From the sequence record PQ511151.1: 64,000 nucleotides of DNA; one strand, written 5' to 3'. This stretch comes from Escherichia phage NHEP36. Below the pieces are notes generated by a model. It did no database searches. It was given only the letters and a program-made list of their open reading frames with translations, and had not been told where the DNA came from. This document shows, in pieces, positions 42,276 to 43,891 of this stretch (the first letter of the stretch is position 1; every line of letters starts with the position of its first letter). The position numbers and the translations under genes are program-made.

Positions 42276-42992
42276 ATGGGAAAACATAACACAATGAAAT
42301 ATATTAAAGCCGCAGATTTTCAATCCGCATTTAAAGCTGTCAATCGTGAAATTTTAGAAAACCCGGAATTCGTAACTGATTCTCGTATTGGACGTTGTAA
42401 TGAAATTGGGTCTATGACAGTAGTTGTTGACACTCCATCAACATTCAAAATGACTGACCCACGTATTAACCGCATCTCTTATGAATATGCCGAAGACTTC
42501 TGGAAGTTTATGATCTCTGGTGGTACTGACGCAGAAGAAGCGTTTAAGGCATATCCTAATGTCGCTAAATTTATTTCTAAACCAAAATCAGATGCTTTGC
42601 CTGCGAACTTCAACACTTTCTATGGTCCTCGCATTGCGGCCCAATTACCAGCTCTTTTAAAAGAACTTAAAGAGAAGCCTAACTCTCGAAGAGTTGTGTT
42701 TCAAATTCTTGAAAGTTCAGATCAGGCTTTGCTTGATTCGGACGAAACTCTTGAATATCCATGTACTGACTCAGTGACTTATTATATTCGCGATGGTAAG
42801 CTTTATACCCACTGTCATATGCGTTCTCAGAACTGTGCTGTTGTTATGCAGTTGGATTTTTATCTCCAAGGAAAATTACTTCATTATATCGCTAACGAAT
42901 GTGGTGTAGAAGTTGGTGATTATACTCATACCATGGTAAGTGCCCATGTGTTTGAACGTGATTTTGATTATGTTAAAGGATTCCTTGACTAA
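42276..42992 (+). CDS. thymidylate synthase / dCMP hydroxymethylase family enzyme (divergent gene 42 analogue)
   Basis: NSRRVVFQ, catalytic-Cys context EYPCTDSVTYYIRD, HMRSQN...QLDFY align with T4 gp42 active-site regions but overall identity is low. Confidence 0.65.
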   Translation: MGKHNTMKYIKAADFQSAFKAVNREILENPEFVTDSRIGRCNEIGSMTVVVDTPSTFKMTDPRINRISYEYAEDFWKFMISGGTDAEEAFKAYPNVAKFISKPKSDALPANFNTFYGPRIAAQLPALLKELKEKPNSRRVVFQILESSDQALLDSDETLEYPCTDSVTYYIRDGKLYTHCHMRSQNCAVVMQLDFYLQGKLLHYIANECGVEVGDYTHTMVSAHVFERDFDYVKGFLD

Positions 42993-43891
42993 TGGCTATT
43001 TTCCGCGTACCTATCTTGAGTATGCGGTCTTATGAAACTGGACAGTATGCTATCCTTAAGGATGGCAACTTCCAACTTCATTTGCACCGTGCTAATCCGG
43101 GTGATGTGATTACATATCCACGTAATGCATCTGATATTAAAGAATGTGAACGTCTTTTCCCAGAATTTAAGTTTGTTCCATTATGGTATAAAGATAACGC
43201 GTATAACACTCGTAAATATTTCTGGTCTGAAAATGAATTTGTGGTTGATTCATTAATTGATTATTATGATTGTGATTTTCTAATCACAGATATCACTGGA
43301 TATGACGGAGCTTTTGATGTAGAATTCAATTTCAATATCACTGCAGACCCTAATAAACCACGTTTTTATATTGATGAATTCTTAAAAACCGACATGTTGT
43401 CGGTTAATCGTTCACTTCAAACTACTGTGTTGAATGAACGTCAAAAGGAAGTGCTGGTTAACGCTGGTGCAGATGGTAATAAGATTATCGTAACCCAGAA
43501 AGTTATACGTCCTTCCATCATGCAGCGTCTTGTAGGTGATTTGGCTCCTATTCATCTAGATGGTATTTTTCATCCATTTCGAATTAGTGACCCGTGCTAT
43601 CGTTTTGAACAAGTGGTTGAATGTGCAATTCAATTAGGTCAACCGCTTTATGTAACCGATCCAAATAATAGCTTCGATAGAAATAAGTATCCTGAAGAAG
43701 CGCTGATTAGAATTTTTAATCCAACTAAAACCGAGTACTATCAAATTCTTAAAGGACGGCCGAAGATTCAATATTTCGAAAATCCTGAAGAAGTATTCCA
43801 TCCAGGTCTTGGTGAGTTCATCTACTTTAACGCTTTAATTTCTTCGCCGTATAATATACCTAAATATGAAGATGTCGTAATCGAGGAATAA
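42992..43891 (+). CDS. hypothetical protein (candidate DNA sugar transferase, beta-gt position)
   Basis: ORF track 299 aa; no motif recognised; positional inference only. Confidence 0.5.
   Translation: MAIFRVPILSMRSYETGQYAILKDGNFQLHLHRANPGDVITYPRNASDIKECERLFPEFKFVPLWYKDNAYNTRKYFWSENEFVVDSLIDYYDCDFLITDITGYDGAFDVEFNFNITADPNKPRFYIDEFLKTDMLSVNRSLQTTVLNERQKEVLVNAGADGNKIIVTQKVIRPSIMQRLVGDLAPIHLDGIFHPFRISDPCYRFEQVVECAIQLGQPLYVTDPNNSFDRNKYPEEALIRIFNPTKTEYYQILKGRPKIQYFENPEEVFHPGLGEFIYFNALISSPYNIPKYEDVVIEE

Follow-up and report, generated by a model that had tools for sequence, protein, structure and literature searches.

A 299-aa GT-B protein of an RB69-like coliphage as candidate first transferase of the arabinosyl-5-hydroxycytosine pathway

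The 64,000-nucleotide stretch of Escherichia phage NHEP36 analysed here (sequence record PQ511151.1; hereafter the window) carries at 42992..43891 (+) an open reading frame (ORF) of 299 amino acids (aa) with an ATG start, and we propose that this gene very likely encodes the first, base-proximal glycosyltransferase (GT) of the arabinosyl-5-hydroxycytosine pathway. We favour this assignment because of orthology, phyletic counts, synteny, a TAATG operon overlap with the upstream gene and the assignment made in the literature. The gene belongs to a family that has been described and for which this function has already been proposed, and in that sense it is not new.

Arabinose in the DNA of RB69 was reported by Thomas et al. 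(2018), who proposed ORF003c as the transferase and left the module of the 299-aa gene unassigned (PMC6024577). Lee et al. (NAR 2026; bioRxiv 2025) identified the modified base as beta-D-Araf-(1,3)-alpha-D-Araf-5-O-deoxycytidine (Araf, arabinofuranose), with arabinose ether-linked to 5-hydroxycytosine, and named RB69 gp46:47 'alpha-arabinosyltransferase 1' from structure prediction, likewise DLP3 gp79 and Thanatos TH1_063 (PMC13326640). The same first-transferase assignment has been repeated for Mosigvirus NP (PMC13390438). An 'Afh' or 'Aat' name belonging to the 299-aa gene was not found in the accessible literature.

Orthology and predicted fold of the 299-aa protein

The window comes from an RB69-like coliphage, a Mosigvirus, and the genes flanking the 299-aa gene are collinear with RB69 ORF055c to ORF045c. 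A reading of the letters alone (the sequence-only reading) had regarded the product as an unknown protein; it proved to be the ortholog of RB69 gp46:47, which has already been proposed to be arabinosyltransferase 1, with 98.3% identity to RB69 ORF047c+ORF046c (= gp46:47) and likewise to the HY126 protein. Identity to Thanatos TH1_063, a true ortholog at the same position, is 47%, and that to the DLP-type gp79 (DLP1) is 45%. There is no substantive difference between the window protein and RB69 gp46:47, DLP3 gp79 or TH1_063, whose published function is itself a prediction, apart from the window gene being intact and the RB69 record split. Alignment shows that a single extra T in the 2003 record divides the RB69 gene into ORF047c and ORF046c, while in the window, as in the other listed Mosigvirus genomes, the gene is full-length. 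The extra T lies at about 24950 of GenBank record AY303349 (about 7545 in our locus L007), where GTAGTGTG stands against GTAGGTG.

At the nucleotide level the gene is found with 95-99% identity in 153 phage records, all of them from Mosigvirus-type coliphages or Shigella phages, and every one of these records annotates it as 'hypothetical'. The protein belongs to phrog_3891 (function unknown; 2.2e-155), and protein-level relatives occur in 348 phage records. Conservation in these 153 and 348 records, together with 24 invariant residues, establishes that the gene is real and under selection.

Since the protein had no Pfam, NCBIfam or PDB-profile-search match, only its fold was informative. The AlphaFold2 model, built from an alignment of 67 diverse homologs at 34-75% identity, has a mean pLDDT of 95.3 and a pTM of 0.90, and displays two Rossmann-like beta/alpha/beta domains separated by a cleft, which is the GT-B architecture. 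The best Foldseek matches, pteridine glucosyltransferases and MshA, agree with GT-B, and the closest structural neighbours also include the retaining GT4-type GT-B enzymes sucrose-phosphate synthase (SPS), BshA, PimA and MshA, with SPS and OtsA at the top; among viral models, the matches were to the family itself and to generic GT-B transferases only. From the model we predict a compact GT-B glycosyltransferase that is a sequence orphan. The sequence-only reading had suggested structure prediction as a check for a glycosyltransferase fold, and the model bears this out.

GT-B is also the fold of UDP-GlcNAc 2-epimerases, which account for many of the Foldseek matches at E about 1e-5 to 1e-6, and the protein might accordingly be a GT-B enzyme other than a transferase, e.g. 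a UDP-sugar 2-epimerase-like remodeller of the donor. We regard this as extremely unlikely; the epimerases fit the model less well (TMq about 0.5 vs about 0.6), and neither family HMMs nor the best structural fit placed the protein among them.

The 24 residues invariant across the 67 homologs include R12, S13, D24-G25-N26, R33, Y66 and R74 in the N-terminal half, and conservation in the C-terminal half covers F193, P195-F196-R197, D200, Y203, P224-N225, K246, Y250, H270-P271-G272 and E/D275. The family has invariant motifs of its own, namely MRS, DGN, PFRxSD, DPN and HPG. In the model, R197, D200, Y203, K246, H270-P271-G272 and E/D275 sit at loop-to-helix positions of the C-terminal half. An EX7E motif can be read in the window protein (E267...E275), but as a family feature it was rejected, both positions being acidic in only 4 of the 67 members and position 267 being mostly K or T.

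Gene order, phyletic distribution and sugar number

The 299-aa gene lies directly downstream of the gene-42 homolog, in the slot where T4 has beta-gt. At the junction TAATG its ATG shares nucleotides with the stop codon of the thymidylate synthase (TS)-family gene that precedes it, a 182-aa P-loop kinase gene begins 2 nt past its own stop, and farther downstream come uvsX (44541..45713), gene 40 and gene 41; the T4 order is 43-imm.1-imm-42-b-gt-segA-uvsX-40-41. Both the coordinates and the T4 gene order agree with the sequence-only reading, which had placed a 299-aa ORF in the beta-gt slot. It had also seen no resemblance to T4 beta-gt, and at the sequence level this holds: BLASTP gave E = 3.7 and hhalign a probability of 0.2%, and PF09198, which T4 beta-gt (GT63) matches at 9.4e-98, is not matched by the 299-aa protein. 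The likeness to T4 beta-gt is one of place and type, both genes lying between gene 42 and uvsX and both products being GT-B proteins, of which the T4 enzyme modifies a 5-substituted cytosine of a T4-like phage with a UDP-sugar, as is proposed for the 299-aa protein. The hhalign probability was at most 0.2% for T4 alpha-glucosyltransferase (GT72) and for RB69 ORF003c and its HY126 counterpart, the 366-aa GT of structure 9iqz, and the 299-aa protein is about 70-100 aa shorter than T4 alpha-gt and the ORF003c-type GTs. The upstream gene, taken for a member of the hydroxymethylase family in the sequence-only reading, turned out to encode a flavin-dependent dCMP 5-hydroxylase by its match to the HY126 structures (Table 1). 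A scan for promoters and terminators between 37.5 and 45 kilobases (kb) revealed no enrichment over shuffled sequences.

We examined 49 IMG/VR loci plus other contigs containing relatives of the gene. With few exceptions among more than 50 loci, the GT gene directly follows a TS-like hydroxylase gene, and this holds even for relatives of 35% identity on contigs of 355-383 kb; every cluster also has a thymidylate-kinase (TMK)-like gene, which usually overlaps the GT stop codon. T4-like phages add genes for arabinose activation, namely a SIS isomerase, an AfhE-like kinase/pyrophosphorylase and a HAD phosphatase. In a second group, at about 37% identity and partly from the 355-383 kb contigs, the order is Flavodoxin_2 - TS - GT - kinase, and most of its loci have no arabinose genes within 8 kb, while two (L004 and L053) carry a SIS gene and an AfhE-like gene. 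Because most of the distant clusters are without arabinose-activation genes within 8 kb, those of the jumbo-phage type may use another sugar donor. The Flavodoxin_2 gene, whose product resembles NAD(P)H-flavin reductases, lies just upstream of the TS-like hydroxylase gene (L003 6426-6932, L005 6739-7293, L004 1-523 and L036-L050), a place consistent with its supplying reduced flavin to the flavin-dependent hydroxylation. As a separate observation, uvsX appears in two parts, by annotation or as detected, in Thanatos-1 (L001 8917-11317) and in L021, L030 and L032; in Thanatos-1 a GIY-YIG (Seg-like) homing-endonuclease gene lies between the parts.

The 348 records with the 299-aa family include mono-arabinosylated lineages, and the hosts comprise Escherichia, Acinetobacter, Klebsiella, Serratia, Enterobacter, Proteus, Yersinia and Shewanella, among others. 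The ORF003c-type GT was present in 211 records, exclusively Mosigvirus-type coliphages and Shigella phages, at one place each, and Acinetobacter phages, at two places each; the lineages that have it are di-arabinosylated where there is one copy and tri-arabinosylated where there are two. Published chemistry has Thanatos and the Serratia-host LC53 as mono-arabinosyl, RB69, Bas46 and NP as di-arabinosyl and DLP3 as tri-arabinosyl phages. Taken together, counts and chemistry indicate that the number of sugars equals one, for the 299-aa family, plus the number of ORF003c-type genes. In mono-arabinosylating lineages, the 299-aa family is the sole GT candidate (cf. Serratia phage X20), and the phyletic pattern fits an enzyme from which the modified cytosine receives its first non-glucose sugar. 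As the window also carries the start of an ORF003c-type gene, we predict di-arabinosylated DNA in the source phage. The sequence-only reading had made the protein a positional candidate for transfer of a non-glucose sugar to 5-hydroxymethylcytosine (hmC); the transferase part is strengthened by the GT-B fold and the phyletic pattern, whereas the acceptor is 5-hydroxycytosine and not hmC (PMC13326640, PMC13390438).

A very distant relative (18-24% identity, TMq 0.75) was seen in Serratia phages Muldoon (BFVD A0A5P8PH66) and PS2 (H85, 24150-24635), the latter listed by Thomas et al. (2018) among phages with homologs of T4-type glucosyltransferases (PMC6024577). This hints at a wider range of acceptors or sugars for the GT family.

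The first transfer and its acceptor

In the pathway as we envisage it, the TS-like enzyme would hydroxylate dCMP to 5-hydroxy-dCMP (5hodCMP), a reaction shown by others for the TS homolog gp48, with a flavin cofactor, and kinases would raise the product to the triphosphate that replaces dCTP in replication. The latter was shown by others for a gp1-type deoxynucleoside monophosphate (dNMP) kinase, which phosphorylates 5hodCMP (PMC13326640). The isomerase, which is the first step of the sugar-donor pathway, would act with the AfhE-like and AfhF-like enzymes to convert ribulose-5-P into UDP-arabinofuranose (UDP-Araf), as shown by others in the 98%-identical HY126, where UDP-Araf is made by AfhE and AfhF and the AfhE ortholog has UDP-arabinose pyrophosphorylase activity (PMC13326640). 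UDP-Araf is presumably the product of the AfhE-like protein of the window and the donor for the 299-aa GT. The 299-aa protein would then transfer one alpha-D-arabinofuranose from UDP-Araf to the 5-OH of the cytosine ring, with UDP-Araf probably bound in the C-terminal Rossmann domain and R197, K246 and H270-P-G...E/D275 as candidate contacts. A retaining chemistry like that of the GT4-type neighbours would fit an alpha product from an alpha-linked UDP-sugar. Finally, the ORF003c-type GT (gene start 63497) would add the second, beta-1,3-linked arabinose, in line with reports that GTs of this type add the second and third sugars onto arabinose and not onto the base, and that DLP3 gp76+gp77 add further arabinose on DNA (PMC13326640).

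Several points weigh against a first-transferase function. Purified single GTs, including the DLP3 ortholog gp79, were inactive on DNA containing 5-hydroxycytosine (5hoC-DNA) with either UDP-Araf or the arabinopyranose donor UDP-Arap (PMC13326640), and for the Thanatos ortholog TH1_063 transfer was not seen in vitro, the protein being described instead as a UDP-xylose pyrophosphorylase (PMC12838424). We found no biochemical proof of the first transfer in the accessible literature, outside which lie He et al. (2026) and Mahler et al. (2025). At the level of sequence, none of the 67 family members matches Pfam GT or epimerase models, Glycos_transf_1 included, and, differently from the retaining GT4-type enzymes, the family has neither an HMM match nor a conserved EX7E. 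The 299-aa protein is moreover acidic (isoelectric point, pI, 5.0; family median 5.15). As indicators of DNA binding, net charge and pI were rejected, since known DNA-acting GTs are likewise acidic (T4 alpha-GT, pI 6.11; one DNA-acting 366-aa paralog, 5.3) and the measure does not discriminate.

By analogy with T4, the first arabinose is most likely accepted by 5-hydroxycytosine after its incorporation into DNA. The authors of the chemical work cannot tell the mononucleotide from DNA as the site of first arabinosylation, and their finding of single GTs inactive on 5hoC-DNA would fit a pre-replicative first arabinosylation, with the GT, physically associated with the TMK-like kinase, acting on 5-hydroxy-dCMP (or the di- or triphosphate), the kinase phosphorylating the glycosylated nucleotide and the polymerase incorporating it. 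This order of events has further points in its favour. The TMK-like kinase accompanies the GT in almost all loci, and, as the separate gp1-type kinase already phosphorylates 5hodCMP (PMC13326640), the presence of an additional kinase calls for an explanation; the acceptor-side N-terminal domain contains three invariant arginines (R12, R33 and R74); and in SPS and OtsA, the leading structural neighbours, the acceptor is a phosphorylated small molecule.

Gene fusions bear on the same question. An exhaustive profile search among 1.84 billion proteins yielded 229 representatives of the GT family, 18 of which are at least 430 aa long. Six (P0209, P0218, P0224, P0226, P0240 and P0243) have a C-terminal thymidylate-kinase-like domain with the P-loop GFDRIGKD, and in one (P0211) the kinase is N-terminal to the GT; the occurrence of both orders implies that fusion took place more than once, independently, and that GT and kinase are physically linked. 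No description of such fusions in both orders was found in the accessible literature. Eight other representatives (P0126, P0131, P0138, P0143, P0150, P0160, P0183 and P0212), however, carry an N-terminal HAD phosphatase (DFDG motif), although the phosphatase and the GT do not catalyse consecutive steps, so that fusion alone is weak evidence that two steps are consecutive. In one HAD-GT locus (L063 733-2343), a TMK-like kinase gene directly precedes the fusion gene; several of the fusion proteins are on contigs too short for informative context. Against the pre-replicative order it can also be said that all characterised phage cytosine glycosylations are post-replicative (T4 alpha- and beta-GT; DLP3 gp76+gp77 on RB69 DNA), that expression of just the hydroxylase and the gp1-type kinase suffices for 5-hydroxydeoxycytidine to enter DNA (PMC13326640), and that the kinase of jumbo-phage-type modules may simply be the module's own 5hodCMP kinase. 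On balance, we consider pre-replicative arabinosylation unlikely, and transfer to 5-hydroxycytosine in DNA is the reading that we prefer.

The report on TH1_063 raises another alternative, namely that the 299-aa protein is a UDP-pentose pyrophosphorylase and not a transferase. When His-tagged TH1_063 was incubated with pyrophosphatase, UTP and xylose-1-P, a compound was formed whose mass and MS2 pattern matched those of UDP-xylose (PMC12838424), and TH1_063 is a true ortholog of the 299-aa protein. The predicted fold, however, is GT-B and not that of a nucleotidyltransferase, and the sugar-1-phosphate nucleotidyltransferase signature GxGxxTRxxPxT...K occurs in none of the 67 members, yet is present at aa 8-24 of the adjacent AfhE-like protein (GAGLATRLYPITHHIPK), for whose HY126 ortholog the UDP-arabinose pyrophosphorylase activity has been reported. 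Moreover, the sugar in the TH1_063 assay was xylose and not the natural sugar, the product could be due to a host enzyme that co-purified, or to a GT working in reverse or by phosphorolysis as a side reaction, and mono-arabinosylating phages would be left without a transferase if the 299-aa family were a pyrophosphorylase. We hence find a pyrophosphorylase very improbable and retain the first transferase as the most likely function of the 299-aa gene.

Neighbouring genes and wider significance

The remaining genes of the arabinosylation cluster are listed in Table 1. For the gp45-type kinase, the substrate is presumably 5-hydroxy-dCMP or its arabinosylated form. The ORF003c-type gene starts just after a topoisomerase gene (61637-63454).

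Table 1. Arabinosylation genes of the window and related features on other contigs
Feature	Position	Strand	Supporting matches and remarks
SIS-domain arabinose-5-phosphate isomerase (RB69 gp55)	37902..38537	+	PF01380 1e-10; phrog_5670 'arabinose 5-phosphate isomerase' 4.1e-116
Bifunctional sugar kinase + UDP-sugar pyrophosphorylase (RB69 gp52:53; AfhE-like)	38719..40404	+	PF00483 N-terminal; APH-type kinase matches C-terminal
HAD-type phosphatase (RB69 gp51; AfhF-like), Araf-1,5-bisphosphate to Araf-1-P	40389..40790	+	phrog_1238 7e-43; role per PMC13326640
Peptidase-U32-family protein, 391 aa (RB69 gp50)	40832..42007	+	PF01136 7.5e-11; phrog_5757; weak UbiU match
Conserved 76-aa ORF (RB69 ORF049c), between U32 gene and hydroxylase	42004..42234	+	phrog_8601 9.8e-45; present in several related loci
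TS-family dCMP 5-hydroxylase (flavin-dependent; RB69 gp48 ortholog)	42276..42992	+	PF00303 2.4e-15; near-identical HY126 structures 9iqc/9ir2/9iqu, E = 4.5e-162
First arabinosyltransferase candidate, 299 aa	42992..43891	+	Ortholog of RB69 gp46:47, DLP3 gp79, Thanatos TH1_063
Thymidylate-kinase-like P-loop kinase (RB69 gp45)	43893..44441	+	phrog_761 'thymidylate kinase' 3.6e-45; Walker A GPDNAGKT at aa 9
ORF003c-type second GT-B arabinosyltransferase, first 168 codons, runs off window end	63497..64000	+	tblastn 99.4% to RB69 ORF003c aa 1-168
GT-kinase fusion loci	L064 5412-7064; L062 762-2561		
U32 genes in non-T4-like contigs	L055 5783-6865; L062 2605-3552; L064 10053-11153		

The U32 family includes RlhA, which forms 5-hydroxycytidine in 23S rRNA, as well as TrhP and UbiU/V, and these are O2-independent, prephenate-dependent hydroxylases (PMC5727448, PMC6599085, PMC10990095). 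A protein very similar to that of the window (E 1e-106 to 1e-115) is encoded beside the GT and the kinase in three non-T4-like contigs (L055, L062 and L064), in which a TS-like hydroxylase was not detectable. The U32 protein could be an O2-independent or alternative enzyme for hydroxylation of cytosine at position 5, acting in place of the O2-dependent TS-like hydroxylase or as a backup to it. U32 and RlhA are unmentioned in the NAR 2026 paper (PMC13326640), and we found no description of U32-paired clusters in the accessible literature.

A further study, citing Mahler et al. (2025), states that arabinosylated 5-hydroxycytosine protects against restriction enzymes, type I CRISPR-Cas and the Brig1 glycosylase in a large group of T4-like phages (PMC13216743). 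Many phages with this base are candidates for phage therapy. The enzyme that places the first sugar commits the DNA to modification, and deleting it is the obvious way to obtain phages that can be engineered or are restriction-sensitive; a first arabinosyltransferase could also serve as a reagent for labelling 5-hydroxycytosine. While the window gene adds only another member to a family already assigned in the literature, the interest lies in the first transfer step, the form of its acceptor, the obligatory kinase partner and the conflicting report of a pyrophosphorylase. If the first arabinosylation were pre-replicative after all, a sugar-bearing deoxynucleoside triphosphate would be a natural substrate of the polymerase.

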